Shown: positions 16,284-34,498, counted from the stretch's first letter. The stretch: 64,000 nucleotides of DNA from Armatimonadota bacterium (GCA_041690135.1 JAWLHY010000004.1:64001-128000), one strand, 5' to 3'. Notes: generated by a model not told the origin, from the letters alone. Made by a program: numbers and translations.

Positions 16284-19200
16284 TTACCTGAGCTGAAGGC
16301 CCAGGCGGTTGGCCTTCTTCGCCATCGGCAACACTACGATGCTGCCATCCGGGCGCGCACCGTCCGCGCCCGTCGAGGTGCTGTCCGGACGGAAAATCCG
16401 AATGCGCCGCCTTCCGGTTACCTGTATGGAGAAGAGCCCGCTGGCCCGCGGGATGGGTGTGCTCGTAATGCTGAAGAGCAGCACCCGGACTCGCCCGTCC
16501 GGCTGCGGGTTTTGCGCGATCTGGAGATCGCTGCGGTTAAGTCCCAGGCTGACGGCGTTCAACTGGCCTCCCGCCAGGTCCAGATCGAAGGCCATGGCCG
16601 AGATCGACTCCCGGGCGGGATTGAAGTTCAGCCGGTAGGTTTTCGGCCTCACCCGCGCGTCGGGACTTATCCCCGCAGCTTTGCTTTCCCCCGTGACGTT
16701 CAGGAACAGGTTCACGAGCTGTTGGATGTCGCCCACGTCGATCCCACCGTTGCCGTTGAGATCATGCAGGGCCGGCACAAAGGTGGCCGTGCCCAAGAAA
16801 ACGTTGACGATCATCTGAACGTCCCCGACGTCGACCGAGCCATTGCCGTTCAGATCGCCGCGCAAGCCGAACTGGATCGTAGATGCCGTCGCCGTGGAAT
16901 TGAAGATGCTGCCGCCGGGATCGGTGACCTGAACGCCGGCGCTACTGGTGTCCGGAAGCACGACCCGGACCTGCGTACTGGTGCCCGCAATGCCGGCGGC
17001 CGCCGTGACTGAGACATTGGCAACATTGCCGGAACTGAAGGACGTGCGGTTGGCGACCCCAAAGATCAGACACCGCAAACGTCCGGGACTCACCAGGCTC
17101 GTTTGGACATCCACCCCACTGGGGAGAGCACCGCGTGCCGCGGAAAGGGTGGTGATCTTCGTGGTGTCGTAGAGCAGGTCGAAGCCGGCCGCCGTCACCT
17201 GGCCGCCGTTCGCCGCGAACTGCAGCGGGATCGAGCCCGTGCTTCCAGGGGAGAGTGTTCCATTCGCCAGCACAAATGCGGGCGAACCGCCGCCCGGCGC
17301 GGGAATGGTGAAGTTGCCGTTGCTGGTATCCCGGCAGGTCGCGTTGTTGACGGCACTTACCCGGACACGGCACTGATTGCTCGCTTGGCCTGGGACAGTG
17401 ATGCTCTGGCTGCCGTCGTTAGGCGTATTCGCCAGAAGCGTCGTGTAAGAGGTGCCGTCATTGGTTGACAGCTCGATTTTCACCTCGCCCACGACATTCT
17501 GGCTCGTCCAGGTAACCGCCTGCGTGGAGCCCTGCTGCCAGGTTTCTCCGCCGTTCGGCGAGATGACCGTGATCGTCCATTCTGGCTCACCGATGATGAA
17601 GTTCGCGTTGCTGATATCTGCTGCGCCCGAATTGTCGACCGCACTGACCCGGACTCGGCACTGGTTGCTCGGCGTATTCGGGACGGTCACGCTCTCCGAA
17701 CCGTCGTTGGGGGTGCTCGGCGCCAACGTGGAGTAGGTCGTTCCTCCATTGGTGGACAGCTCGATCCTCACTCCGCCGCCCACGTTCTCACTCGTCCAGG
17801 TGACCGCCTGGGTGGTTCCTGGGACCCAGGTCTCGCCGCCGTTTGGAGAGGATACCGTCACGCTCGCATCGGGGACGATCGGCACCAGAGCGGGTCCGCA
17901 AATGCGGATGTCATCCAACCAGACGCCGTCATGAACGACGCTGCCGTCCGTAATAAGGCGGAAACGCACTTTCAGGTTCTGGCCGAGATAGTCATGTAAC
18001 GGTATCAGGTACTCGCGCCAGTCCGATGTACCAGTGAGGCGGAGCGACTGGCGCTGCCAGGTGCTTCCATTGTTGCTGGAGACTTCCACGTACAGGTAAT
18101 CGTACTGGACCTCGAGGTCCGTCTTCGCGCGGAACATCAGAGATGGGATCATCCCAGTCAGGGCCGGCGAGGCGTTGGTGCTCAGCGAGAGATCGACGCT
18201 GTCGGCGTACGACCCACTCGGACTGTCCGTGTAGGAATGCGTCGGACTGAAGCTCTCCGTCGTTGTCACGGCCCAGGGCGAGCTCCCCGAAAGTTGGGGG
18301 GCGCCTTCCACGGTCTCCTCGAATACGCAGGGCGTCTCGGCGATGCAGATCTTGATATCGTCGAGGTAGACGCCGTCCAGGGTGACGCTTCCGTCGGTGA
18401 TGAACCGGAACCGCACGCGGATACTCTGACCCTGGAAGCTCGCGAGCGGCACGGTGTACGCGGTCCAGTTCGCGGAGCCGTTCAGCACGAGGCTTTGCCG
18501 CCGCCAGGTGGTCCCGTTGTCCGCGCTCACCTCGATGTAGACATAGTCAAAGCCGGATTCCAGATCGTATTTCGCTTTGAAGTTGAGGCTCGCGTCTCCC
18601 GTGATCGCGACCGCGGCACTCTGCGTCAGCGAGAGGTCGATGTTGTTGCCATAGGCACCCGCGGGGCTGTCCGTGTAGGAGCGAGTGGGACTTACACTCT
18701 GGGAAGTAGTGGTTCCCCAGGGAGACTGGCCGGTGAAGCGCAAGGCGCCCTCGACATTATCGTCGAGCGGGCAGAGAACGGTAAGCGTGCGGAACGGGCC
18801 GGCCGTGGCGATGGCGGACGGGTTGCCGACGTTATCCAGGGCTCGGATGGCGAAATGGTAGCTGGTGTTCGGGTCCAGCCCGGAAACGAAGTACGCTTGC
18901 GCAGACCCCGAAGGGAGGGGTGCGGGTGCACCCGCGGCCAGCGTGGCGGACGCGAAGTTACCGGGCGTAATGACCTGTGTACTGTAGCGGATCTCCAGGC
19001 GGCTGGCTGCGCCGGAGCTTCCGTCATCACCGGAGGTGGTCCACGCCAGCAGCATGCCGTTGACAGCCTGGTGAGTAGCGCGAAAACTAATCGGGGCGCC
19101 GGGAGCGAAGGTGTCGTTCTCCACGGCATTGTTGACGTTCAGGCGTCCCCCGGTAACACAAAGTCCATTGAATCCGGCGGGCCGGTCCACCCCTCCCAGG

Positions 19201-20411
19201 ATGCGCCCGATGAGTTGCGACACACTTGCGGTGGGGAACTGGGCAAGGACGAGCGCCGCGGCTCCGGCGACATGCGGACACGCCATAGACGTCCCGTTAA
19301 ACGACGCATAGGCGTTGTTTGGGATGGTGCTTAAAATAGAATCTCCCGGTGCGAACAGGTCGACCGACGCTGCTCCGAAGTTGGAGAACGATGCCGGCTG
19401 GTCATTGCGATCGGAAGCGCCAACGGACAGAACGTTCTCGACTGCGTACGAGGAGGGGTAGTGGGGGGAAGCATCCGTGTTTTCCGTGTTATTTCCTGCA
19501 GCCGCCACGAACAGGATGTTCGCGTTGCGCGCACGCTGGATCGCTTCCAGAAGCAACTGGCTGTAACCACCGCCTCCCCAGCTATTGCTCATCACGCGGG
19601 CGCCGTTGTTCCGGGCGAAATCGATGCACTGGATAGCGGCGGAGAGATTCCCAAAACCATCGGCAGCAAGGAACTTCAAGGGTATGATCTTCACGCGCCA
19701 GTTCACGCCCGTCACTCCCGAGGCATTGTTTCCCCGACCTCCGATGGTGCCGGCACAGTGGGTGCCGTGATCATGGTCGTCCATCGGATCGGCGTCTCCG
19801 TTCACGTAATCGAAGCCGACAACCCGGTTATTAGCGTCCCGTAGAATATTTTGCGTGAGGTCCTCGTGGTTGTAATCCACGCCCGTATCGATCACCGCCA
19901 CGACGATGGTGTCGCTTCCCTGGACCCGGTCCCACGCCTCCGGCGCATCGATGTCCGCATCCGGAGTGCCGCCGTTCTGACCCGTGTTGTGAAGGCCCCA
20001 CAACTCGTCGAAACGGGTATCGTTTGGGATCGCGAGCACTCGCTGGATATAGTCCGGCTCCGCCACCCGCACGGCAGGGTCGCTTCGGAGCTGCCGGAGG
20101 ACTGCCTTGGTGTCGAGTCCTGCTGCCCGGGCGCCGGGCGTCAGCACCACGCGGGAGAAGAAGGGACTCTCAACCTTGCGATCGAGCATCACCCCAGCGC
20201 GCGAGAGAGCATTCATCCGGGCCACCCGTGGCGCGGGCTGCTTGAAGGCTACCAGGATACCCGATGACTCGGGCGGTGCAGCCTTTGCTGCCGGAGCGTT
20301 ACCTGCTGCTTCCCGGCTGGAAATCAAACCGCTACTCGCGCAAATAACAAGCGCTGTAGTGGCAAGCGCCCGGCGCCAAAACATGCGTGCCGGAGGGCAA
20401 GTCTGCGTCAT
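16284..20411 (-). CDS. Secreted S8 subtilisin-like protease with FN3-like, two jelly-roll, two Ig-like, cohesin and dockerin domains
   Basis: Triad VIDTG / HGTHCAG / GTSMACP; duplicated SYTDSP.G.Y..N.D domains; duplicated V.SPNGGETW domains; GDLNGNGSVDVGD x2; AAGGAGG RBS. Confidence 0.93.
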   Translation of the reverse strand: MTQTCPPARMFWRRALATTALVICASSGLISSREAAGNAPAAKAAPPESSGILVAFKQPAPRVARMNALSRAGVMLDRKVESPFFSRVVLTPGARAAGLDTKAVLRQLRSDPAVRVAEPDYIQRVLAIPNDTRFDELWGLHNTGQNGGTPDADIDAPEAWDRVQGSDTIVVAVIDTGVDYNHEDLTQNILRDANNRVVGFDYVNGDADPMDDHDHGTHCAGTIGGRGNNASGVTGVNWRVKIIPLKFLAADGFGNLSAAIQCIDFARNNGARVMSNSWGGGGYSQLLLEAIQRARNANILFVAAAGNNTENTDASPHYPSSYAVENVLSVGASDRNDQPASFSNFGAASVDLFAPGDSILSTIPNNAYASFNGTSMACPHVAGAAALVLAQFPTASVSQLIGRILGGVDRPAGFNGLCVTGGRLNVNNAVENDTFAPGAPISFRATHQAVNGMLLAWTTSGDDGSSGAASRLEIRYSTQVITPGNFASATLAAGAPAPLPSGSAQAYFVSGLDPNTSYHFAIRALDNVGNPSAIATAGPFRTLTVLCPLDDNVEGALRFTGQSPWGTTTSQSVSPTRSYTDSPAGAYGNNIDLSLTQSAAVAITGDASLNFKAKYDLESGFDYVYIEVSADNGTTWRRQSLVLNGSANWTAYTVPLASFQGQSIRVRFRFITDGSVTLDGVYLDDIKICIAETPCVFEETVEGAPQLSGSSPWAVTTTESFSPTHSYTDSPSGSYADSVDLSLSTNASPALTGMIPSLMFRAKTDLEVQYDYLYVEVSSNNGSTWQRQSLRLTGTSDWREYLIPLHDYLGQNLKVRFRLITDGSVVHDGVWLDDIRICGPALVPIVPDASVTVSSPNGGETWVPGTTQAVTWTSENVGGGVRIELSTNGGTTYSTLAPSTPNDGSESVTVPNTPSNQCRVRVSAVDNSGAADISNANFIIGEPEWTITVISPNGGETWQQGSTQAVTWTSQNVVGEVKIELSTNDGTSYTTLLANTPNDGSQSITVPGQASNQCRVRVSAVNNATCRDTSNGNFTIPAPGGGSPAFVLANGTLSPGSTGSIPLQFAANGGQVTAAGFDLLYDTTKITTLSAARGALPSGVDVQTSLVSPGRLRCLIFGVANRTSFSSGNVANVSVTAAAGIAGTSTQVRVVLPDTSSAGVQVTDPGGSIFNSTATASTIQFGLRGDLNGNGSVDVGDVQMIVNVFLGTATFVPALHDLNGNGGIDVGDIQQLVNLFLNVTGESKAAGISPDARVRPKTYRLNFNPARESISAMAFDLDLAGGQLNAVSLGLNRSDLQIAQNPQPDGRVRVLLFSITSTPIPRASGLFSIQVTGRRRIRIFRPDSTSTGADGARPDGSIVVLPMAKKANRLGLQLR

Positions 20412-21343: not shown

Positions 21344-22384
21344 TCAGGGACGGACTCTGGCGGAGCGAGAATGAGCCGGTGCACTGCGATACCGCTCTTT
21401 CCACTGGCTGAAATCGAAGCTCTCCCAGAACTGTCTTCCGGCGGTCAGCCCGGACTGGTAGAGAGTTGCCACTTGCTGCGGTGAAAGTCCGAAATCAGTG
21501 CCTGAAACCCCATCAGTGGGGATCGGGATGGTTCGTGCAAACTCCCGATCTTCGATGTACCGCGCATCGTTCGCCTCCAGCATCGTGGAAATCAAGGCAC
21601 CAAACATACTGATTGGCCCGTTGATTTCCCACCGCCGCTGCCATTGGTCTTGGGGAACTTTGCGCTGGTCACCTTCGACCAGCTTGAATCCGATGGTTGG
21701 CCATTCGGGCTCATGGCCCTTGGGTGTATCAAAAAGCCAGACGGGGAAGCTGCTTACTACTCCACCATCAACGATATAGCAGGTGCGGCCCTGCTGATCC
21801 TGAAGTGTCACTGGTTCAAAGAAGAAGGGAATACTCATGCTCATACGAACCGCGAAGGCAACATCCAGTTGATCCGGATCGCGACCAAAACGCTTAATAT
21901 CGTGAGGCAATCGCAGCATCCGGCAATGTGTTACGTCGGTTGCGATTACTTGAAGCTTATACCGGTACCTCTCATCGTTGGCGTACGGTTGCAGAATCAG
22001 ATCACTAAACGTATGGACATTCTTTCTTGCCAGGAGTTCACGAAGCCATTCTTCGAAGTAATCTCCCTCATATAGCCCTTTTTCCAGACCAACACTGAGG
22101 ATAGGTCCGAGTCCAGGTATGCCACTGAAAAAATCTCGCTGCAGGAACTTCCTGAAGTTCAGGCCCTTTAGAATCAGTTCTAGCTCGTCGGCCGAATATC
22201 CGGCTGCCACGAGCGCGGCAACAATGGCACCCGCGGAGGTACCCGCAACATTGACAAAGGTGCAATTCTGTTCCTCTGTGGCCCTTACCGCGCCAACTAG
22301 ACCGATTCCCTTCACCCCGCCGCCTTCGAAGACGGCATCAATATTCCCGGAGTAGTGATGGACGTTCGCTGTTTGGTCGGTCAT
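21344..22384 (-). CDS. Patatin-like phospholipase
   Basis: GGGVKG, GTSAG and DGG motifs; AGGAG RBS before ATG 22384; visibly lower GC than the flanks. Confidence 0.93.
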   Translation of the reverse strand: MTDQTANVHHYSGNIDAVFEGGGVKGIGLVGAVRATEEQNCTFVNVAGTSAGAIVAALVAAGYSADELELILKGLNFRKFLQRDFFSGIPGLGPILSVGLEKGLYEGDYFEEWLRELLARKNVHTFSDLILQPYANDERYRYKLQVIATDVTHCRMLRLPHDIKRFGRDPDQLDVAFAVRMSMSIPFFFEPVTLQDQQGRTCYIVDGGVVSSFPVWLFDTPKGHEPEWPTIGFKLVEGDQRKVPQDQWQRRWEINGPISMFGALISTMLEANDARYIEDREFARTIPIPTDGVSGTDFGLSPQQVATLYQSGLTAGRQFWESFDFSQWKERYRSAPAHSRSARVRP

Positions 22385-22475
22385 GGTCGTGATCTCCTGA
22401 TGTGATAAGTTGGTCCGAACTGTAAATCCGGAACCTGTGGCTAGAACCATTGCATTCTTGGTCGGCAGCTTCTCC

Positions 22476-23171
22476 TCAAACGCGGCGGCATCGCTGCAGC
22501 ACAGCCACTACGCCCAGAGTCGGTAGGAACAACAATACCGAAGTGGGCTCTGGAACAACCGGCTCCGACCCTTGGGCAACCAATTGCATCCCGGAGAGCC
22601 CTCCGCTTCCTGATGTACTGGAGGAGGCAACCAGTAGTGTGCCGCCAGTGACTTCCACAGCCACCTTCGTCCAGTCGCTTCCCTGGTTCAGGCTATCGCT
22701 GTTGGCGCCCGTGAGATTGGCGACGGGTGTTCCGTTGACCGTAAAAGGGCGGGTGGGAACTGCCGTGTTTGTCGGCGCATACAAATAGACCTGATAGAGT
22801 CCGTTCTCAAGATTGGAAAGGGTGACGGACCAGTGTCTCCCATTGAAGGCGAACATGTTATCGCCGCGCAACTTGGCGGGCTCGCTGGTGCCCACAAAGC
22901 TGTTACCGTCGAACGAATCGGCAACGACATTTACACCGACGGCGGTCGTCGCCCCGCCAACGTTCAGAAGGTGGCTGGTGGTGGCCTGGACGATTGGATT
23001 CCAGTGTCCCGGGCTTGCCGCGGCCGCCCCGAAGGTATTCGCTGGCAATCCGCTTGCGTGCCCAAAGTCAATGTTGATCGTCTGTGCATCCGCGGACTGC
23101 GCATCTCCAGGCAATCCGAGAGCCAGAACGGCACCCGTGAGAGCAATGCGGAGTGAGTTTCCGGTCTGCAT
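22476..23171 (-). CDS. PEP-CTERM sorting-domain protein
   Basis: Signal peptide, INIDFG start of the mature domain, C-terminal VPEPTS + hydrophobic segment + RCRR; AGGAGAGG RBS. Confidence 0.88.
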   Translation of the reverse strand: MQTGNSLRIALTGAVLALGLPGDAQSADAQTINIDFGHASGLPANTFGAAAASPGHWNPIVQATTSHLLNVGGATTAVGVNVVADSFDGNSFVGTSEPAKLRGDNMFAFNGRHWSVTLSNLENGLYQVYLYAPTNTAVPTRPFTVNGTPVANLTGANSDSLNQGSDWTKVAVEVTGGTLLVASSSTSGSGGLSGMQLVAQGSEPVVPEPTSVLLFLPTLGVVAVLQRCRRV

Positions 23172-23405
23172 TGAGCCTCTCCTAGCTGTTAACCCGGGGG
23201 CACCGTATTGTTCCGGTCCGGGACTTGATAGATGGCTGGCGTTTTGATACCACCCCGCTCTACACGAAATCTCCCGGGTCCGTCACAAGTTCATCAAACA
23301 GCCTCTTGACGTCCATGACGGGCAGGCGACGCTGCCCCAAAGCGGTAACCTAATCCTGACGAAACCGATTGGTGGAGCGAACGGGTGACGGCAGGTGAGG
23401 TGCAA

Positions 23406-25250
23406 ATGAACCGGCTCAGGATCAACCTGCTCGGAGGGTTGCGGGTCGATTGCGGCGACCAGGTACTCTCGCGCTTCCGCACGCATAAGACGGCGATGCT
23501 GCTGGCCCGGCTCGCTTTCCATCACCCCCGCCCTCAGCACCGGGAGTTGCTGGTAGAGCTCCTCTGGCCGGACGACCCGCCTGATGCCGGTCGCCGCAGC
23601 CTGAGCACGGCCCTCTGGTCGCTTCGCCACGACCTGGAGACGCTTGGGCTAAACGGGGAGGACGTTATCAGCAGCGACCGTGCCACCATCAGCCTGCGCC
23701 CGGAGAGCGTCCAAATCGACCTGCGGGAGTTTGAGGAGGCACTCCGGGAAGCACAGCGATGCGGCAACCCGGCCGACCGTGCCGCCTGGTTGAGTTGCGC
23801 CGCGGATCTTTACCGGGGCGAACTGCTGCTGGGTTATGCGGAGGACTGGATCTACCCGGAGCAGACCCGCCTGGAAGTCCTTCACGGGGAGTGCCTGCTG
23901 GCCCTGGTGGACGCGTGGGAAGGGGCGGGCGACCCACACCAGGCGCGTGAGGCCGCCGTGCAAGCCGTCCGGGTATCTCCTCTCTCGGAGGAGGCCTGCT
24001 ACCGGTTGATGCGGCTGTATGCGGCCACCGGGCAGCCGGCCGCCGCTCTGCAACTCTACCGAGAACTGGAGCGAAAGCTGCGTGAAGAACTCGACACCCG
24101 CCCCAGCCCCCTCCTCCAGCAACTGGCTCGGGAACTGACCGCCGCGCCGCGGCCCCAACTGTCGGCCCCTGCGGTGTCCGCTACGGTAACCGCACCCTCT
24201 CCCAATCCGATCCAGGGGGACGAACTTCCGCTAGAATCGACGGGAGCGATGCCGGTCAACTCCATGTTCTATGTGGAGCGACCTGTGGATGGCGCTTTTC
24301 ACCAGGCGGTGATACGCCGGGAGAGCACGCTCCTTCTTACGGGTCCGCGGCAAACGGGCAAAACCTCTCTCCTGGCGCGCGGTCTCCGGACGGCGCGCGA
24401 TCATGGCTGTTTGACCCTGCTGACCGACTTCCAGGCTTTGAACCCCGCGCAACTGAACGATGCAGGATCATTCACACGGGCCCTGGCCGAATCACTTGCG
24501 GACCTGGATGAGGTGACCGCCGATCCGCGCGAGAGCTGGAGTGAGAGTCGCAGTTCGGCCTTCAACCTGCGCCGCTTTCTCCACCGGCAGGTGCTGGGAA
24601 GCCTGGACCGCCCGCTCGTCTGGGCGATGGACGAAGTCGACCGCCTCTTCCTCTGTCCCTTCGCCGCAGAGATCTTCGGGCTGTTCCGCTCCTGGCACAA
24701 CGAGCGGGCGGCGGACCCGGCCTCGCCCTGGAACCGGCTGACCCTGGTCCTGGCCTATGCCACGGAGGCGCATCTCTTCGTTTCGGACCTCAGCCAGTCC
24801 CCCTTCAACATAGGCATCCGGTTCGAGCTCGCCGACTTCACCGGACAGCAGGTGGAGGACTTGAACCGCCGCTACGGCTCGCCGCTTGGGGATGAGCGGA
24901 GCCTGGCACGCTTTCAGGGGCTCGTCGGCGGTCATCCCTTTATGGTCCGCCGCGGACTGCAGGAGATGGTCCGGCAGGGGATTACCCCGGCGGAGCTCGA
25001 ACAGATGGCCGGGCAGGACGGCGGCATCTTTCGCGACCACCTCCGCCGGCTCGTCCATGGCCTCGCCGGAGATTCCGCTCTGTTGGCAGCCGTCCGCGGG
25101 CTCCTTTCCGGCACACCCCCTCCCGACGAAGCGTTTTATCGGCTGCGAAGTGCGGGCGTGTTGAAGGGAGAGGAACCGGGGAGTGCAGAATTCCGATGTG
25201 GGCTTTACCGGCTCTACCTGCGAAAGCACCTGCCTTCGGTGCCGGAATGA
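23406..25250 (+). CDS. SARP-like wHTH-BTAD regulator fused to an AAA_35-type P-loop ATPase
   Basis: LRINLLGGLRV..RELLVELLWPD..SLSTALWSLR; AADLYRGELL, PLSEE..RLMRLYA; Walker A GPRQTGKTS, Walker B MDEVD, SPFNIG, GGHPF. Confidence 0.88.
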   Translation: MNRLRINLLGGLRVDCGDQVLSRFRTHKTAMLLARLAFHHPRPQHRELLVELLWPDDPPDAGRRSLSTALWSLRHDLETLGLNGEDVISSDRATISLRPESVQIDLREFEEALREAQRCGNPADRAAWLSCAADLYRGELLLGYAEDWIYPEQTRLEVLHGECLLALVDAWEGAGDPHQAREAAVQAVRVSPLSEEACYRLMRLYAATGQPAAALQLYRELERKLREELDTRPSPLLQQLARELTAAPRPQLSAPAVSATVTAPSPNPIQGDELPLESTGAMPVNSMFYVERPVDGAFHQAVIRRESTLLLTGPRQTGKTSLLARGLRTARDHGCLTLLTDFQALNPAQLNDAGSFTRALAESLADLDEVTADPRESWSESRSSAFNLRRFLHRQVLGSLDRPLVWAMDEVDRLFLCPFAAEIFGLFRSWHNERAADPASPWNRLTLVLAYATEAHLFVSDLSQSPFNIGIRFELADFTGQQVEDLNRRYGSPLGDERSLARFQGLVGGHPFMVRRGLQEMVRQGITPAELEQMAGQDGGIFRDHLRRLVHGLAGDSALLAAVRGLLSGTPPPDEAFYRLRSAGVLKGEEPGSAEFRCGLYRLYLRKHLPSVPE

Positions 25251-25274
25251 TGCCGGACGGAAGAACTGACGATC

Positions 25275-28200
25275 TTGCGATCCCAAGACCCGGATAGCAC
25301 TCCACGACTACCCTTTTACGTGAGCGGCGGTACGCTGCGAGCCGATGCCCGCTGCTACGTCCACCGCGAGGCGGATGAGGTGCTCTTCCGAAGCCTCTGC
25401 GCGGGAGAATACTGCTACGTCCTTACCTCGCGGCAGATGGGGAAGAGCTCGCTGATGGTGCGCACGGCCCTCCGACTCCGCGAAGCCGGCATCACCCCCG
25501 TGCTCCTTGACCTCACCGCCCTGGGACAGAACCTCACGCCGGACCAGTGGTATCGCAGCCTGCTCGACATGGTGGGCGAGCAACTGGCCCTGGAAGACGA
25601 ATTGGAGGCCTTCTGGGAGAGCCATCTCCACGTGGGCCCCATCCGGCGCTTCGTCGAAGCCCTCATCCAGGTCGTTCTGCCACTTCTACAGGATAAGGAC
25701 AGTGGGCAGCGGGCAGAAGTCAGCAGGCAGACGGTAGAAGGCAGTGGGCGGAAGCTCGTGTTGTTCATCGATGAGATCGACACGGTGCAGGCACTGCCGT
25801 TCTGCACGGACGAGTTTTTCGCCGCCATCCGCGAGTGCCACAATCGCCGGAGCGACACCCCGCTGCTGGAAGGCCTCACCTTCTGTCTGTTGGGCGTAGC
25901 CACCCCCAGCGACCTGATCCGCGATCCCCGCACCACCCCCTTCAATATCGGACGAAGGGTGGAGTTGACCGACTTCCGCTCCGCCGAAGCGGCGCTTCTG
26001 GCGCATGGATTAGAACCCCTGCGCCTCGACCCTGCCGCGGTGCTGAAGCGGGTCCTTCACTGGACCGGCGGCCACCCGTACCTCACCCAACGGTTCTGCC
26101 AGGCCCTGGTGGAGCAAGGGGGTGTCCAAAACCTCCGGGATGTCGATGCCGCCTGCGAAGCGCTGTTTCTCAGCAAGCAGGCGCGGCTCCGGGACAACAA
26201 CCTTCTCTTCGTGCGGGAACAGGTTCTCCGCTCCCAACTGGCCGACCGTTCCCTGGAAGAGACGCGGTCGGCGGCCCTGGACCTTTACCTCCAGGTATGG
26301 CGGGGACGGAAGGTGGCGGAGGATCCGGCGGACCCCGTGACCGGCCTCCTCCGCCTGGCGGGATTGGTCCGGAGCGAGCGAGGACGCCTGTACCCACGCA
26401 ACCGCATCTACACCCGCGTGTTCGACGGGGAGTGGGTCCAGAGCCAGTTACCGGAGGCGGAAGTGCTGCGCCAGCGCACTGCCTTTCTCCGGGGCGTGCG
26501 GCGCACGGCATCTGTTGCCGGCGTGGTGCTGGTCGTGGTCGGCGGCCTGGCTGTTTCCCTGGTCGTGACCTTAAAGGAGAAGGACGCGGCCCTCAGCCGT
26601 CTCCGGCTTACACTCGGCAACCTGGAGCGGCAGACCGCGCGGGCCGAACAGGAAGCCCACCGCGCGGAACAGGCGGGGCGCCGGGCCGCACTGGGCGAGC
26701 GGCTGGCGGAGCAGCGCCGGGCAGAGACCGAGCGGGAACGACAGGGCGCCCGCGCACTGCAACAGATAGCCGAAAGTGCTCGCGACCAGGCTCAATGGCG
26801 CCTGGCACAGATGCATCTGACAGAGGGCTGGCGTAAGATCGAGGAGGCCCAGCCGGCCATTGGCCTGCTCTGGTTCGTGGAGGCACTCAAGCTTCTAGAA
26901 GGCAAAGCGGCGGAGGAGCAGCGCGTTCTTATCGCTACCCTCCTCCGCCTGACGCCCCACCCCCGCCTTACCTGGAGCCATTCGGGGCAGGTCCAGTTCG
27001 CCCGGTTCAGCCCGGACGGAAGTCGGGTACTGACCGCGGCTAACAACGGTTCCATCGAAGTCCGGAACGTCGAGACGGGCGAACGGGTGGGGAAGGCCCT
27101 ATGTGGAATAGGGTTGCCCAGGGACGCGAGTATCCAGCAGGGCGGAGTCGTCCGGGTAGTCTGTGTCCAGGGCAAGGAGGCCCGTGTCTGGGATGCCCGC
27201 CGGGGCCTGCCGGTAAGTCCGCCTTTGCGTCACCCTGCGGGAGTAACTTACGCGGCCTTCAGCCCGGATGGCCGCCACATCACCACCTCCTGCGATGACG
27301 GAATGGCAAGGGTCTGGGATGCCTACACCGGTGCCTCGGTTGTTCCGCCGCTGCGACACGAGGCGAGCGTCTGGCATTGCACCTACACGCCGGATGGGAA
27401 GAAACTGCTGACCCAGGACGCCAACCGGCAGCTCTTCCTGTGGGAACTGGGAACCGCTTCTTCCTCTCGCAGGAGACATCTTGGGGCGGCCGAGACCTGG
27501 GGAATCTGTGCCGCTACCGGTGCCCTGGTCGCGGGAATGCGAGGCACGGAGCGCTCCGTTCTCCTGCATTCCCTCCGAACCCAAGGGGCCGTCGCGCAAC
27601 CGCTGGACCATCACGGAACCATCTTCCAGGCTGCATTCAGCCCGGACGGCCGCTGGGTCGCCACGGCCGGCTCCGATCATTTCGCCCGGGTGTGGAGTAC
27701 GGCAACCCGCCGCCGGGTCAGCGTACTTCCTCGTCACACCGCACCGGTGGCGGGAGTGACCTTCGGCCCATACGCCTCTCAACTCGTGACTACCTCCGTC
27801 GACCGCACCGCCCGGGTCTGGAGTACGAGCACGGGAGTACCCCTCTCCCCACCCTTGCCGCACGGCGGTCCCGTTCTCACCTCCGTCTTCGCTCCCAACG
27901 GGCAACACCTGGTCACGTTGGGAAAGGATGGCCTCGTACGGCTCTGGGATCTGGCCACAGTTGATCGCGCCGCCGCGGAGGTCTACTCTCGCGAGGAGGA
28001 ACAAGTAACTTCGCTGCACCCCGACCGCGATCGGTGGATCACCGCCGGTCCTCTCGGAGCGGGAATCTGGAAGATCAGCGACGGCACCGCCATAGCGAGC
28101 GGGTTGCCGCATGCGGATCCCGAACACTTCGCACTGCCCCAGTTGAGCCCGGATGGAAGGCGTCTGGTTACCCGGTCCCACAAACCTGCGGGGCTCCATT

Positions 28201-29843
28201 TCTGGCAGAAAGATGGAAGGCTGACGACGGGTCGGAACAGCGAACTCCACCGCTACTACGTGCTCGCGGTCGACCCGACGGGGCAGCTCATGGCGGCCGG
28301 CACTGGGGGAGGCGGTATCGAGGTACGCCGAATGCGGGACACGGAACTGATCACTCTGATCCGCAGAAACGGACCTGTGCTCAGAGATTTGTGCTTCAGT
28401 CCGGATGGCAAACTCCTACTCGCTTCGGATGCGGAGGGCAAAGCCCGCCTCTGGAGCGCTCACAGCGGCAAACCCGCGGCGCCCCCCTTATCCCACCTGG
28501 CGGATATCCGGTTTGGACAGTTCAGCCCCGACGGTCGCTGGGTCGCCACGGGGAGTGAGGGCAGCAAGGCGCAAGTCTGGGAGACGGCGACCGGCCATCC
28601 CGTGACGCGTCCGCTCCCCCACGAGGCAGTCGTTACCTCGCTGCGCTTTCATCCTACTGGAAAGACCCTCGCCACGGCGGGGCGTGACCGGGTCGCGCGG
28701 GTCTGGCGCTTGCCCGAGGGCACGCGCCTCGGCTCTGCGATGCACCACCGGGAAACGATCACCGACCTGGCCTTCAGTCCGGACGGTCAGTGGCTGGCAA
28801 CCGGCAGTGAGGACGGCACCGTGCGCGTGTGGGATGCGCGGACGGGTCGTCCGATTACCCCCTATCTTCCCGTCGGCGAAGGGGTCAGCCGGGTCGCTTT
28901 CGGATTGGATGGTAAGAAACTGTATGTCGGGACGGATAAGGGTGCCGTGCAAACCTGGAACTTGAACCCCGACAACCGTTCGGTCAGCGACCTGAAACGC
29001 CTGGCGTGGTATCTTTCGGGTCACCAGCTGAATGCGGCAGGCGGCCTGGTCCCCCTGGAGGCCGACACCCTGGCCCGGCTCTCGCGCGAGCTTCGCGAGT
29101 TTTCGCCCTCTCCCCTGCGCTCCGGGACCCCTCAGGTTCTCGCCTGGCACCGTCGCGAGGCCGCGGTGGCCGAGCGCGACGGGATGTGGGTGGCGGCGGC
29201 CAGGCACCTCGACCCCCTGCTGAAGGAGTACCCGACGTCGCGCTGGCTGCGCGTGCGACGAGCTCACGCCCGATCCGAGGCGGAGCTCTGGTCCGGAGCG
29301 GCCGAAGATTGGATGCGCCTGCGGAAGCGGGAGCCGCATGACCCGATCTTCTGGTATCAGGAAGCCCTTTGTCGCCTGGGCGCGGACGATCTCGGAGGGT
29401 ACCGAGCGACCTGCCGCGGGATGTTGCGTCAATTCGAAGATGCGTCCGATCCCCGATCTCGCGACCTCACTGCCTGGACTTGCGCTCTGGGTGACTGTTC
29501 ACCGGACGCCCGGGCGCGAGCACTGGCCCTGGTGGAAGACCTGCTGAAGGGCCAACCGGAGCACGAGAATCACCTCAACACCCGGGGATTACTTCTTTAT
29601 CGCGCCGGACGGCATCACGAGGCGCACGTGACCCTCCAGCGGGCCATCCGGCTCCGAGGCGAGAACGGCTCTCCCGTCGACCGCCTCTTCAGCGCTCGCG
29701 CCCAGGCCAGGCTGGGCGACACCCGCGCCCTCGCGGGAGCCCGCGAGGACGTGGAAGAGGAGGCCTCTCGCCTGGTCGCCGCCCTCAAATCTGCCTGGGC
29801 GGACCGGCTGGAGATGCGGTTGTTCCTGCGGGAACCGGACTGA
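25275..29843 (+). CDS. AAA_35-type ATPase + single TM helix + coiled coil + WD40 propellers + TPR-like C-terminus
   Basis: FYVSGGTL..YVHREAD, SRQMGKSS, FIDEID, TPFNIG, TGGHPYLTQ; TM VAGVVLVVVGGLAVSLVVTL; many H...V..AFSPDG..ARVWD repeats. TTG start uncertain. Confidence 0.88.
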   Translation: MRSQDPDSTPRLPFYVSGGTLRADARCYVHREADEVLFRSLCAGEYCYVLTSRQMGKSSLMVRTALRLREAGITPVLLDLTALGQNLTPDQWYRSLLDMVGEQLALEDELEAFWESHLHVGPIRRFVEALIQVVLPLLQDKDSGQRAEVSRQTVEGSGRKLVLFIDEIDTVQALPFCTDEFFAAIRECHNRRSDTPLLEGLTFCLLGVATPSDLIRDPRTTPFNIGRRVELTDFRSAEAALLAHGLEPLRLDPAAVLKRVLHWTGGHPYLTQRFCQALVEQGGVQNLRDVDAACEALFLSKQARLRDNNLLFVREQVLRSQLADRSLEETRSAALDLYLQVWRGRKVAEDPADPVTGLLRLAGLVRSERGRLYPRNRIYTRVFDGEWVQSQLPEAEVLRQRTAFLRGVRRTASVAGVVLVVVGGLAVSLVVTLKEKDAALSRLRLTLGNLERQTARAEQEAHRAEQAGRRAALGERLAEQRRAETERERQGARALQQIAESARDQAQWRLAQMHLTEGWRKIEEAQPAIGLLWFVEALKLLEGKAAEEQRVLIATLLRLTPHPRLTWSHSGQVQFARFSPDGSRVLTAANNGSIEVRNVETGERVGKALCGIGLPRDASIQQGGVVRVVCVQGKEARVWDARRGLPVSPPLRHPAGVTYAAFSPDGRHITTSCDDGMARVWDAYTGASVVPPLRHEASVWHCTYTPDGKKLLTQDANRQLFLWELGTASSSRRRHLGAAETWGICAATGALVAGMRGTERSVLLHSLRTQGAVAQPLDHHGTIFQAAFSPDGRWVATAGSDHFARVWSTATRRRVSVLPRHTAPVAGVTFGPYASQLVTTSVDRTARVWSTSTGVPLSPPLPHGGPVLTSVFAPNGQHLVTLGKDGLVRLWDLATVDRAAAEVYSREEEQVTSLHPDRDRWITAGPLGAGIWKISDGTAIASGLPHADPEHFALPQLSPDGRRLVTRSHKPAGLHFWQKDGRLTTGRNSELHRYYVLAVDPTGQLMAAGTGGGGIEVRRMRDTELITLIRRNGPVLRDLCFSPDGKLLLASDAEGKARLWSAHSGKPAAPPLSHLADIRFGQFSPDGRWVATGSEGSKAQVWETATGHPVTRPLPHEAVVTSLRFHPTGKTLATAGRDRVARVWRLPEGTRLGSAMHHRETITDLAFSPDGQWLATGSEDGTVRVWDARTGRPITPYLPVGEGVSRVAFGLDGKKLYVGTDKGAVQTWNLNPDNRSVSDLKRLAWYLSGHQLNAAGGLVPLEADTLARLSRELREFSPSPLRSGTPQVLAWHRREAAVAERDGMWVAAARHLDPLLKEYPTSRWLRVRRAHARSEAELWSGAAEDWMRLRKREPHDPIFWYQEALCRLGADDLGGYRATCRGMLRQFEDASDPRSRDLTAWTCALGDCSPDARARALALVEDLLKGQPEHENHLNTRGLLLYRAGRHHEAHVTLQRAIRLRGENGSPVDRLFSARAQARLGDTRALAGAREDVEEEASRLVAALKSAWADRLEMRLFLREPD

Positions 29844-29939
29844 TTCACAGCGCCAGGACATCGAACTGAACCTCCACCCTGGCCCGCCGGGTGATGGAGC
29901 CCGCGCTGGGATGCGAGCACCCTTAAGGTCAGGCGCGGC

Positions 29940-30698
29940 TTACTGCCCGTATCCGTAGGGAGAGGGCTGGTTGGGATCCAACTCTACCCGCGCGGCAGCC
30001 TCCTGATCCAGGGCGAACACCTCCGCATAGCCCACGGCCATCATCAACAGGCTGACCGGCAGCGTGATGAGCATACCAAACCCTGCCAGGAGCCCGCCCA
30101 GGCTCGCCACGATCTGGATCACCAGGGCCCACAGCACGTACATCCCCAGGAACGGCCGCGTGGCCCGCGCGCTGGCCGACATCGCGTCGCTCATCGACAT
30201 CCCGCGGTCCACCACCAGGATCGGCACGTACAGCCAGAGCCCGGCGAGAATCAGGCCCGGAACCAGGCAGAAGAGGGAGGCCACACCCACGGCCAACCCC
30301 ACCACCAGCATCGTGCCGAACAAACGGATGGCGGTGTCGGCCGGCACCATAATGTCCCGGTAGTCCACCGTCTGCCCTCGCACCTGCCGGGCGGCGATGT
30401 GAATCATTCCGGCATAGAGATAGCTGGTCGGGACCCAGGCCACCACCACCGCAAGGATAATCGTTCCGATGAGCACCAGCACACCGGTAATGTCGCCCCC
30501 TCCGGCTGCCACGGACACGAACCCGAGCGCTAATCCAACCATCACTACCAGGGTCACGAGCAACCCGGGCACAAAAAGTAGGATCAGGGAGTGAACGACC
30601 CACACCGCCCACGCCTCGCCGAACAGGTTGAAGGCCCGCGACGTCCAGTCACCAAACCGGGGACTGATCTCCCGGATGTCGTAGCTTCCCATCATCAT
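29940..30698 (-). CDS. Integral membrane hypothetical protein
   Basis: Five to six hydrophobic segments; CLVPGLIL..VPILVVDR..AMSAS pattern; overlaps the upstream stop. Confidence 0.75.
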   Translation of the reverse strand: MMMGSYDIREISPRFGDWTSRAFNLFGEAWAVWVVHSLILLFVPGLLVTLVVMVGLALGFVSVAAGGGDITGVLVLIGTIILAVVVAWVPTSYLYAGMIHIAARQVRGQTVDYRDIMVPADTAIRLFGTMLVVGLAVGVASLFCLVPGLILAGLWLYVPILVVDRGMSMSDAMSASARATRPFLGMYVLWALVIQIVASLGGLLAGFGMLITLPVSLLMMAVGYAEVFALDQEAAARVELDPNQPSPYGYGQ

Positions 30699-31483
30699 CT
30701 GGTCCTCCGCGGATAGGGAGTAGTCCCTGGACTACATTCTCCCTCCATCAGCCGTGAGCCTCCAACAGTTTTGCCTTCGGCTTCCAAGGCGGATCTCAGC
30801 ATGGCTACGTACTCCTCCAGAACCTGCCGCTGGCAGGGGTGCAAATCCACGCCGGAGCGCTTTTCCCGCACCCGGCGCACCGCTTCATCCGCCGTTGCGG
30901 CGTGCCCGGCGGCCACCAAATACGCCGCCACGAACAGGGCGCTCCGCCCATGCCCCAGGGCGCAGTGCACGTAGACACTCCCTTCCGCCAGGCGCCTCCG
31001 CATGTAATCGACCCCGACGATCAATTGCTCCAGCGAAGGCGCGCGGGTGTCCAGCAAGGGAATGCAGTGGTAGTGAAGCACCCGCTTCCCAGTTCCCGGC
31101 GCGGGAAACTCGCTGGTCAGGTCGAGCACCCCAGAGATCCGCAACCGGCCAAAGAGCTCGGGTTCGAAAGCGGTGGGCTTGCGGCCCAGGTAGAGACCCG
31201 GAACGATTTCGTGGAAACCGGAATCCCGCGCCCAGCGCAGCGCAGCCAGGAAACCACCATTGATGAGCAGGTAAGGCCAGAAGACGGCATAGGCTACGGG
31301 CGCGAACTCTCCCGTCACCCTCTTACCGAACACCCGCGGCCCGAGCCATCCATACGCCAGCCCCACCCCCGTGAAAGCGAGGGCCGTGCAAACGAGGACC
31401 AGGCGCTGCCAAAACGGACCCTCCTTCGCAGCGTAGAGAGCACAGGTCGCTCCAAGAGTGAGAAAAGCCAAAGCGTACTTCAT
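30695..31483 (-). CDS. Membrane-anchored dual-specificity protein phosphatase
   Basis: VYVHCALGHGRS (CX5R), EIVPGLYLG, N-terminal TM helices. Confidence 0.9.
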   Translation of the reverse strand: MKYALAFLTLGATCALYAAKEGPFWQRLVLVCTALAFTGVGLAYGWLGPRVFGKRVTGEFAPVAYAVFWPYLLINGGFLAALRWARDSGFHEIVPGLYLGRKPTAFEPELFGRLRISGVLDLTSEFPAPGTGKRVLHYHCIPLLDTRAPSLEQLIVGVDYMRRRLAEGSVYVHCALGHGRSALFVAAYLVAAGHAATADEAVRRVREKRSGVDLHPCQRQVLEEYVAMLRSALEAEGKTVGGSRLMEGECSPGTTPYPRRTR

Positions 31484-33148: not shown

Positions 33149-34498
33149 ATGATGCTGCGACAACCCACAGCGACGCCGGAAGCCCGACGGCTTGGCGAAT
33201 TCATCCATCCTCTAGGCGGGTCGGTGGGAGATTACGATGCCCTGATGGACCTGGTGGGAGACGCCCGTTTCGTGCTGATAGGCGAGGCCTCGCATGGAAC
33301 GCACGAATTCTACCAACAGCGCGCTCTGATCACCCAGCGCCTGATTGAGGAGAAGGGGTTCAACGCGGTCGCGGTGGAGGCCGACTGGCCGGACGCCTAC
33401 CGGGTGAACTGCTACGTGCGGGGCCGGAGCAGCGCCCCCGATGCGGACGCGGCCCTCCGTGGCTTCGAGCGCTTCCCCACCTGGATGTGGCGGAACACGG
33501 TGGTCCGGGACTTCACGGAATGGCTGCGCCGCTACAACGCCGCGCGCGACCCGGGAGATCCCGAGGTGGGATTCTACGGCCTGGACCTCTACAGCATGCA
33601 CACGTCCATCGAGTCGGTGCTCGGCTATCTCGAGAAGGTGGATCCCGAGGCCGCAGCCCGAGCCCGGTATCGTTATAGCTGTTTCGACCACGTGGGCGAG
33701 GACCCGCAGGCTTACGGTTACGCCGCAAGCTTCGGCATGTCTCCTTCCTGCGAGGAGGCCGTTACCCAGCAGTTGGGCGAACTGCGCCGGCGAGCAGAAG
33801 AATACATGCACCGAGACGGCCGGGTGGCCGAGGACGATTTTTTCTATGCGGAACAGAACGCCCGGCTGGTCAAGAACGCCGAGCGCTACTACCGCTCGAT
33901 GTTCCGCGGCCGGGTCTCCTCCTGGAACCTGCGCGACCAGCACATGGCGGAAACCCTGGATGCGCTCGTCGCCCACCTGGAGCGACACGGCGGGATGGCT
34001 CGCGTTGTAGTGTGGGCGCACAACTCGCACCTGGGAGACGCCCGCGCCACGGAAATGGGCGACGGCGGCGAGTTGAACATCGGCCAGCTCGTGCGGGAGA
34101 AATACGGCCGGGAGTCGGTGCTGGTCGGCTTCAGTACCTACACCGGCACGGTCACCGCCGCTTCCGACTGGGGCGCCCCGGCGGAGCGGAAACGGGTCCG
34201 GCCCGGCCTATCCGGCAGCTTCGAGGAACTGTTCCACCAGCAGGACATGCCGGATTTCCTGCTGCCGCTGCGTGATTCCCCGGCAGCCGGACTGCTGCGC
34301 CAGACCCGCCTCCAGCGCGCCATCGGGGTGATCTACCTTCCCCAAACGGAGCGCCAGAGCCACTACTTCCACGCGCGGCTCCCGAACCAGTTCGACGCCA
34401 TGATCCACTTCGACGAGACCCGCGCCGTGGAGCCGCTGGACCGGACCCAGCACTGGGACGAGGGAGAACTGCCGGAAACCTATCCGTTTGGAGTGTAA
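33149..34498 (+). CDS. Erythromycin esterase-family protein
   Basis: [47 protein letters not shown]. Confidence 0.93.

Follow-up and report, generated by a model that had tools for sequence, protein, structure and literature searches.

The stretch of DNA considered here, which we refer to as the window, is a 64,000-nucleotide segment (64001-128000) of contig 4 of an Armatimonadota bacterium genome (GCA_041690135.1), an assembly of 9.1 Mb in 25 contigs that has a G+C content of ~65% and its closest relatives in the Armatimonadota (Chthonomonadales). An open reading frame (ORF) scan of the window finds two co-oriented ORFs that together occupy positions 23385-29843 of the plus strand. The upstream gene, which we call A, encodes a SARP-type transcriptional regulator fused to an NTPase module of the AAA_35 family (Pfam PF14516), and the downstream gene, B, which starts 24 bp after the stop codon of A, encodes a second AAA_35 module followed by a predicted transmembrane (TM) helix and a WD40 beta-propeller region (Table 1). 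Computational analysis establishes the domain content of the two proteins, the recurrent pairing of their genes, the exchange of output domains on A, the TM segment of B and the congruence of the A and B trees, and it yields a predicted interface between the two modules. We read the pair as a two-protein, STAND/NLR-like transmembrane signalling switch in which B would be the sensor and A the SARP output, a reading to which we give a probability of roughly 0.6.

Table 1. Features of the A/B locus, its neighbours in the window, and related genes elsewhere that are mentioned in the text
Feature	Position	Strand	Remarks
Gene A, SARP-AAA_35 regulator	23406..25250	+	614 aa from ATG 23406; 621 aa if GTG 23385
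OmpR-type winged-helix DNA-binding domain of SARP	23409..23699	+	~residues 9-105
BTAD (PF03704)	23715..24137	+	residues 111-251; 77.1 bits vs cut-off 22.1
Flexible linker between SARP and ATPase halves	24153..24239	+	residues 257-285; AlphaFold2 pLDDT <50
A-type AAA_35 module (P-loop NTPase, helical lid, winged helix)	24240..25223	+	residues 286-613
Gene B, AAA_35-TM-WD40 membrane protein	25275..29843	+	1522 aa, TTG start
B-type AAA_35 module (NTPase, lid, winged helix)	25314..26450	+	residues 14-392
Single predicted TM helix	26514..26570	+	residues 414-432; Kyte-Doolittle 19-residue mean 2.64
Charged A/E/R/Q-rich helical stretch after TM, possible coiled coil	26580..26834	+	residues 436-520; from sequence composition only
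WD40 beta-propeller region, two blocks	26967..29003	+	~residues 565-1243; PF00400 E 4e-71
C-terminal helical tail, weak TPR-like signal	29004..29840	+	all matches below cut-offs
Subtilase (Peptidase_S8) with InhA-like MAM, Kre9/KNH-like Ig and dockerin domains	16284-20411	-	1375 aa
Patatin-like phospholipase	21344-22450	-	E 4.3e-33; divergent, upstream of gene A
Protein with weak PEP-CTERM end	22476-23171	-	231 aa; E 0.0028; divergent, upstream of gene A
Dual-specificity phosphatase-like protein	30695-31483	-	just downstream of gene B
Erythromycin-esterase family protein	33149-34498	+	E 2.5e-145; further downstream of gene B
Tandem of two TIR-AAA_35 genes, contig 16	L002:4163-7797, L002:1937-4105	-	699, 508 aa
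Solo B-type gene, contig 7	L003:12205-15456	+	1083 aa; 12 WD40 stretches
ECF sigma factor gene beside a kinase-type pair	L039:5151-5744		PF07638 E 2.1e-52
Gene following the short B of kinase+TIR loci (example)	L043:5818-7626		540-630 aa

The start of gene A is placed at the ATG because the stored database copy of the protein (P0003) is 614 aa long and 100% identical; residue numbers of A nevertheless count from the GTG at 23385. In its amino-terminal half a BTAD follows the DNA-binding domain, which is the order that defines the SARP family, and this part of the protein matches AfsR over residues 4-370 (phmmer E 5.9e-8). The winged helix-turn-helix (wHTH) is recognized through its AlphaFold2 model (predicted local distance difference test, pLDDT, >90), which aligns structurally to EmbR and AfsR; the sequence match to Trans_reg_C at residues 33-87 reaches 17.5 bits, under the Pfam cut-off of 26.2. 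The carboxy-terminal half matches AAA_35 with 231.7 bits against a cut-off of 27 (profile positions 3-330) and bears the motifs GPRQTGKTS (Walker A, 320-328), MDEVD (Walker B, 416-419), PFNIG and GGHP. Pfam finds no sensor domain on A, and the databases name A genes only as "DNA-binding SARP family transcriptional activator".

For gene B the TTG start was adopted because it is the sole ATG, GTG or TTG codon upstream of the nearly invariant residue F14. Its AAA_35 match is shorter (residues 19-280, profile positions 4-245 of 331, 81.5 bits against the cut-off of 27) and carries SRQMGKSS (Walker A, 52-59), IDEID (Walker B, 166-169), PFNIG and GGHP, so that Walker B reads DE(V/I)D across the two proteins; aligned over 289 columns, their ATPase modules show 29% identity (E 1e-18). 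The WD40 region scores 232.9 bits in 7 stretches, with propeller families at 657-895 and 1019-1243. The charged stretch at 436-520 matches no family, and the tail gives TPR_2 at E 8e-4 (19.8 bits, cut-off 27) and TPR_19 at E 1.7e-3; in the contig 8 paralogue of B, TPR_2 reaches E 1.5e-8. No output domain is found on B by Pfam. The initial annotation of this DNA, made from the sequence, had described two adjacent co-oriented genes 24 bp apart, the first a wHTH-BTAD protein with a carboxy-terminal AAA_35 domain and the second an AAA_35 domain with a TM helix, a coiled coil, WD40 propellers and TPR-like repeats. Both ORFs are as described, all the motifs that it quoted are present in the translations, each on a P-loop AAA_35 module, and the domains of gene A are recovered by Pfam (BTAD, AAA_35) and by structure (wHTH); for gene B, AAA_35 and WD40 are confirmed by Pfam, the TM helix is predicted from hydropathy, the coiled coil corresponds to no more than the charged stretch at 436-520, and the TPR-like repeats are found only below threshold.

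The hydrophobic segment, which the same annotation had proposed as a TM helix at ~26510-26575, is a family trait. A segment with a Kyte-Doolittle value of at least 1.6 lies just after the winged helix in all six B paralogues of this genome, and 42 of 43 B proteins surveyed in other genomes have one in the corresponding place (six more with truncated cores were skipped), which makes 48 of 49 overall; none of the SARP-type A proteins has such a segment. The flank on the amino-terminal side of the segment in B is arginine-rich, and among the 43 B proteins Lys and Arg within 15 flanking residues are more numerous on that side in 28. These counts suggest that B is oriented with its amino terminus in and its carboxy terminus out. 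The WD40 region would accordingly lie outside the cell, since the NTPase needs cytoplasmic nucleotide and the protein has a single span, a topology that we infer from sequence.

The AlphaFold2 model of A (pLDDT 88.4) has two halves joined by a disordered linker. The best Foldseek match of the SARP half is EmbR (2ff4_B, E 4.7e-11 over 249 columns), and AfsR aligns with a TMt of 0.73-0.76 (0.76 for 8k60_I). The ATPase half is closest to the archaeal structures 2qen and 2fna (E 1.4e-8 and 1.0e-7), followed by CED-4, ORC/Cdc6, Apaf-1, Avs3, plant NLRs and MalT. The model of B residues 1-410 (pLDDT 87.2, predicted template modelling score 0.83) contains the NTPase, lid and winged helix, and its neighbours, obtained via a structure search independent of Foldseek, are again headed by 2qen_A (Z 20.5, root-mean-square deviation (rmsd) 4.3, 315 residues aligned) and 2fna_B (Z 20.0, rmsd 4.3, 316 aligned), with the plant NLR 9h2l_A (Z 15.6, rmsd 4.9, 308 aligned), ORC2 1w5s_A (Z 15.2, rmsd 5.8, 304 aligned), MalT 8bob_D (Z 13.5, rmsd 3.4, 231 aligned), Avs3 8dgc_A (Z 12.2) and NAIP/NLRC4 8fvu_B (Z 12.1) further down. 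On these models AAA_35 sits between ORC/Cdc6-type AAA+ proteins and STAND proteins, with archaeal Walker-type ATPases as its nearest structural neighbours. The series of NTPase, helical domain and winged helix that marks STAND/NLR-like proteins is present, with ORC/Cdc6 proteins scoring about the same as NLRs, and the STAND habit of carrying effector, NTPase and sensor on one polypeptide is not seen, the SARP being on A and the WD40 region on B. The structural neighbours of the modules (2qen/2fna, NLRs, ORC/Cdc6, MalT) are oligomerising switches.

A pair of this kind is far from unique to the window. A scan of the genome with PF14516 gives 14 matches, among which are five adjacent, co-oriented pairs consisting of a gene with a full AAA_35 match and then a gene of 1230-1580 aa with a short AAA_35 match and WD40. 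The upstream member is SARP-AAA_35 in three of them (contig 1, the window and contig 8) and TIR-AAA_35 in the other two (contig 7, and contig 4 at 242 kb). When 41 genomes were searched, this one included, 12 had an AAA_35 match, including all six others of the same family, and adjacent A/B pairs were found in at least 8 of the 12. On a wider scale, a profile of 21 SARP-AAA_35 proteins retrieved 581 relatives from a species-representative genome collection, and we analysed the best 80 loci, sorted by hidden Markov models built for the A core and the B core. These loci come from Armatimonadota (Chthonomonadales and Fimbriimonas, the closest), Verrucomicrobiota and Acidobacteriota, with a few bins under other names. 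Downstream of A there is a B gene within 1 kb on the same strand in 46 of the 80, a B gene at 1-3 kb in 3, a second A-type gene in 3 and neither in 19; in the other 9 the contig ends within 1.2 kb. Loci with a SARP-type A have an adjacent B in 18 cases, none in 2 and too little sequence in 2 (18/20 evaluable). At least 2.5 kb of downstream sequence is available in 17 of the 19 loci that have no B gene downstream, and 3 of these 17 have a B-type gene immediately upstream instead. In several loci A and B must abut or overlap, because the B core begins 21 nt after the A stop. The succession of A and then B is a conserved module and no local accident. It belongs to large families: a profile of the B module has matches in 12,074 representative clusters when the limit is E<=0.001, and still in 5,711 when it is E<=1e-30, and at least 3,744 SARP-AAA_35 proteins are found at E<=1e-10 among 7,999 candidates scored.

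Other arrangements of AAA_35 genes accompany the pairs. In three loci (L032, L037, L073) the gene after TIR-AAA_35 is of the A type but encodes just the AAA_35 module (~380 aa), with no amino-terminal domain, and this is another kind of AAA_35 pair. The tandem of TIR-AAA_35 genes on contig 16 is without a B-type partner; the next gene downstream, which has the same orientation, encodes a HisKA_3/HATPase_c histidine kinase. A solo B-type gene lies on contig 7, divergent and 2 kb from a TIR-type A/B pair, and A-B-B clusters occur at L038, at L080 and on contig 7 of this genome; in such settings one output protein may serve several sensors.

What varies most among the pairs is the amino-terminal domain of A. 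Among the 80 loci it is a SARP in 22, TIR in 24, a protein kinase in 14, kinase+TIR in 13, a cyclase with or without TIR in 5, a wHTH alone in 1 and nothing in 1; the remark in the initial annotation that AAA_35 gene pairs occur with other partner domains was thus well founded. The Walker A and Walker B motifs do not vary in either the A or the B family. The B module keeps 52-61% identity between phyla, and within this genome the SARP-linked paralogues are 34-36% identical in their sensor parts as compared to 55% in the ATPase module, a combination that fits diversified ligand specificity coupled to a fixed transmission module. WD40 was detected at E<=1e-30 in 29 of 43 B tails scanned, the remainder being short (e.g., TPR_12 in L043) or cut by contig ends. 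An extracytoplasmic function (ECF) sigma factor gene lies directly upstream of kinase-AAA_35/B pairs in five loci, one of which was scanned (Table 1), and these genes point to transcription as an end point. In six kinase+TIR loci of Pyrinomonadaceae/Blastocatellia, B is short (~700 aa, with a TPR tail and no WD40) and is followed by a conserved gene of 540-630 aa; its product has no Pfam match and may be a third component of the kinase+TIR systems.

Contact between the two modules was predicted by co-folding residues 283-621 of A with residues 1-405 of B, an alignment being supplied for each chain. All three runs returned a score of 0.65, and the best of the three controls reached 0.01. Among solved complexes 116 of 157 attain that mark, and mismatched pairs do so in 2 of 215 cases; these rates apply here only approximately, because the alignments used for A and B were our own. 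The runs share at least 75% of their contacts, with partner pLDDT of at least 81, and they pack the modules head-to-tail, the arginine-bearing face of A being placed on the ATP site of B. Contacts on the side of A comprise residues 388-400, 426-445 (including the helix 427-443, FRSWHNER) and the PFNIG loop (470-477), and on the side of B the amino-terminal GGTL strand (18-24), Walker A (53-62), 77-103 and Walker B (166-170). They include invariant columns of both families; on A, the FRSWHNER helix with R435 and R441, which are invariant in the A family, and PFNIG (473-477) are on the predicted face. Trees of the A core and the B core from 46 pairs (41 loci plus the five pairs of this genome, five adjacent loci with truncated B cores having been dropped) are congruent with a Mantel r of 0.882, a value reached in 0 of 2000 permutations, the largest of which was 0.406. 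The nearest neighbour of A is also that of B in 18 of the 46 pairs, and either tree sets the SARP-linked pairs of this genome apart from its TIR-linked ones. Among the 150 best B-type representatives, 17 have two or three B modules in tandem before the TM segment (e.g., P0125-P0130), and P0154 is a single B-A fusion of 818 aa that lacks a TM segment. The fusions, the A-B-B clusters and the congruent trees lend independent support to the view that AAA_35 modules work side by side.

The form of the switch that we consider most likely is a divided version of an AfsR-like SARP switch whose sensor half lies across the membrane, because A keeps the SARP and a module resembling a nucleotide-binding oligomerization domain (NOD) but has no sensor, and B has a NOD-like module and a sensor but no output, and spans the membrane. 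In such a switch the NTPase, lid and winged helix of B would face the cytoplasm, one helix would cross the membrane, and the WD40 region and helical tail would be exposed outside. A putative extracellular ligand bound there would alter the nucleotide or oligomeric state of the B NTPase; the arginine face of A would then complete the ATP site of B head-to-tail, so that A is recruited to B and possibly polymerises on it, as NLRC4 does on NAIP. Recruitment would either lift the inhibition of the SARP by its ATPase or place SARP domains side by side, and the paired SARPs would, like the AfsR SARP dimer, recognize direct repeats in the promoters of their targets and bring in RNA polymerase. We infer in this way the direction of information flow (B to A), the sign of regulation and the target genes. 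Activation by induced proximity fits the finding that the same scaffold bears TIR, kinase or cyclase outputs. The initial annotation had proposed that a receptor ATPase signals to a regulator ATPase by hetero-oligomerisation and without phosphotransfer. The first of these ideas is supported, and none of the three outcomes that it had set against itself was found: the two architectures are conserved as neighbours, an ATPase-ATPase interface is predicted, although co-folding does not separate hetero- from homo-oligomers, and the hydrophobic segment has the character and conserved position of a TM helix. Signalling without phosphotransfer holds for the SARP version and fails for those sister modules that use a protein kinase as output.

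Several observations weigh against this reading or reduce the force of its support. Both families keep both faces of the module, so that A could pack against A, or B against B, just as plausibly, and solved structures contain many AAA+/STAND modules packed head-to-tail, for which reason the co-folding result speaks for likeness more than for specificity. Congruent trees are also expected when two genes are inherited or duplicated as one unit, and the kin compared are not independent. Of the 71 evaluable loci, 19 have an A with no B next to it, most of these being TIR-only genes of Verrucomicrobiota, and solo B genes exist. The DNA-binding domain of A is below the Pfam cut-off by sequence, and the topology of B is drawn from hydropathy and from Lys+Arg counts that are equal on the two sides in 13 of 43 proteins and reversed in 2. 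No SARP-box-like direct repeats are present in 23100-23420, where the only repeats are short, two-copy and at chance level, and no third gene or target gene is shared among the loci with SARP-type pairs.

The data on pairing, interface and TM segment would fit just as well a switch of opposite sign, in which B would hold A inactive at the membrane, in the manner of an anti-sigma factor, until a signal frees A as a soluble oligomer. Such sequestration has the attraction that an activator could hardly, for steric reasons, be bound to DNA and tied to a membrane complex at once, and in AfsR the NOD is reported to inhibit the SARP until ATP binds (PMC10936776). The sequence itself favours neither sign. 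We nevertheless think sequestration unlikely, given that domains such as the TIR and kinase outputs that this scaffold also bears are generally activated through proximity and not by release. Less likely still, in our estimation, is that the two genes are independent of each other, as tandem paralogues that comprise a self-contained ATP-gated SARP and an unrelated membrane ATPase, or that the hydrophobic segment does not span the membrane and B is a cytosolic STAND protein. The loci with A alone or B alone would suit independence, and the predicted interface could be generic AAA+ packing, but A and B are old and distinct types, as their 29% identity indicates, and yet their order and tight spacing have been kept across three phyla; their trees are congruent, and each lacks the very domain that the other supplies. 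A cytosolic B is at odds with a hydrophobic segment that keeps one position in 48 of 49 proteins. We regard this group of explanations as very improbable.

An intermediate standing, improbable though somewhat less so, goes to the idea that the module is mainly a conflict or immune system (NLR-like, acting by abortive infection), whose SARP version would turn on defence genes. Sister pairs with TIR domains, two of them in this genome, plant NLRs and Avs proteins among the structural neighbours, and the divergent patatin-like phospholipase gene upstream of A, whose product also matches the phospholipase effector models of PADLOC (E 2.3e-9), are in keeping with it. On the other hand, PADLOC-DB 2.0 has no significant match for A or B (A meets only PDC-S01, at E 1e-4 and 19.1 bits), a sensor that points outward is unsuited to intracellular phage proteins, the patatin gene is no conserved neighbour in SARP-type loci, and the ECF sigma genes at five kinase-type loci point to transcriptional signalling. 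In the same database one TIR-type A and one TIR-type B protein have no match, and the MoxR AAA+ and vWA components of vWA-MoxR and iSTAND ternary conflict systems (Kaur et al. 2020) are absent among the neighbours in the window.

Those neighbours encode the patatin-like protein, the PEP-CTERM-like protein, a membrane protein and the phosphatase. The patatin-like and PEP-CTERM-like genes are left out of the proposed system because no flanking family is shared among SARP-type loci. A promoter and terminator scan of 23100-30100 gave 0 promoter-like sites and 5 terminator-like sites, as compared to 3.9 expected. A search for public sequencing runs listed none, RNA included. We found no paper on AAA_35 pairs, and PF14516 is not named in the literature that was searched; the main text of Kaur et al. 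2020 (PMC7159879) has no mention of AAA_35, AAA-like, SARP or BTAD, and that of a STAND census preprint (10.64898/2026.01.04.697583) has none of AAA_35, though the supplements of either could list the family.

Returning to the split, membrane-spanning switch that we favour, the range of outputs invites a broader and more tentative proposal, to which we give slightly less than even odds: that the pairs represent a large class of bacterial transmembrane signalling systems in which an outward-facing repeat sensor relays its signal by nucleotide-dependent co-assembly of paralogous NTPases, without phosphotransfer or proteolysis, to a soluble partner that could carry any proximity-activated output (SARP, TIR, kinase, cyclase or GGDEF). 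If this is true, the class would parallel, in bacteria, the sensor/helper NLR pairs and Toll-type receptor-adaptor signalling, and would form a modular transmembrane route to be set beside two-component systems, ECF/anti-sigma pairs and receptor kinases. It would mean that bacteria possess the co-assembly of sensor and helper known from NLRs in a form that is split and crosses the membrane. The pair, being simple and read out through transcription, would then lend itself to tests of the principle of co-assembly.

The kinds of proteins involved here, STAND/NLR-like switches and AfsR-like SARP regulators, are known, and it is the AAA_35 pair as a signalling scheme that appears to be new. The best structural matches to both modules, the archaeal ATPases PABY2304 (2qen) and SSO1545 (2fna), which we take to be members of Pfam PF01637, share the NTPase, lid and winged helix, but they are stand-alone proteins of unknown function without effector, TM segment or repeats, and they are only 14-18% identical to the modules described here. 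NAIP-NLRC4 and the sensor-helper NLRs of plants are activated by hetero-oligomerisation through their NTPase modules. They offer a possible analogy in that two paralogous NODs are divided between a sensing protein and one with the effector; they differ in that they are immune receptors of the eukaryotic cytosol and use NACHT or NB-ARC modules, whereas the pair in the window is bacterial, with a membrane sensor and a transcriptional output. In EmbR-PknH of Mycobacterium tuberculosis a SARP regulator is likewise placed under a separate membrane receptor, the two being coupled by an FHA domain and Ser/Thr phosphorylation; in the present pair the coupling modules are paralogous NTPases. The nearest parallel in domain content is with AfsR and the large SARPs of actinomycetes (SARP-NOD-TPR), in which a wHTH and BTAD are also fused to a P-loop NTPase and a repeat domain acts as the sensor. 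The AfsR SARP is reported to bind direct repeats as a side-by-side dimer and to be inhibited by the NOD and TPR until ATP binding relieves the inhibition (PMC10936776), and AfsR has been treated as an NLR-like switch (10.64898/2026.09.02.748808). AfsR belongs to the Actinomycetota and uses NB-ARC in place of AAA_35, whereas in the Armatimonadota-like bacterium studied here the sensor repeats reside on a second, membrane-spanning protein with a paralogous NTPase of its own.

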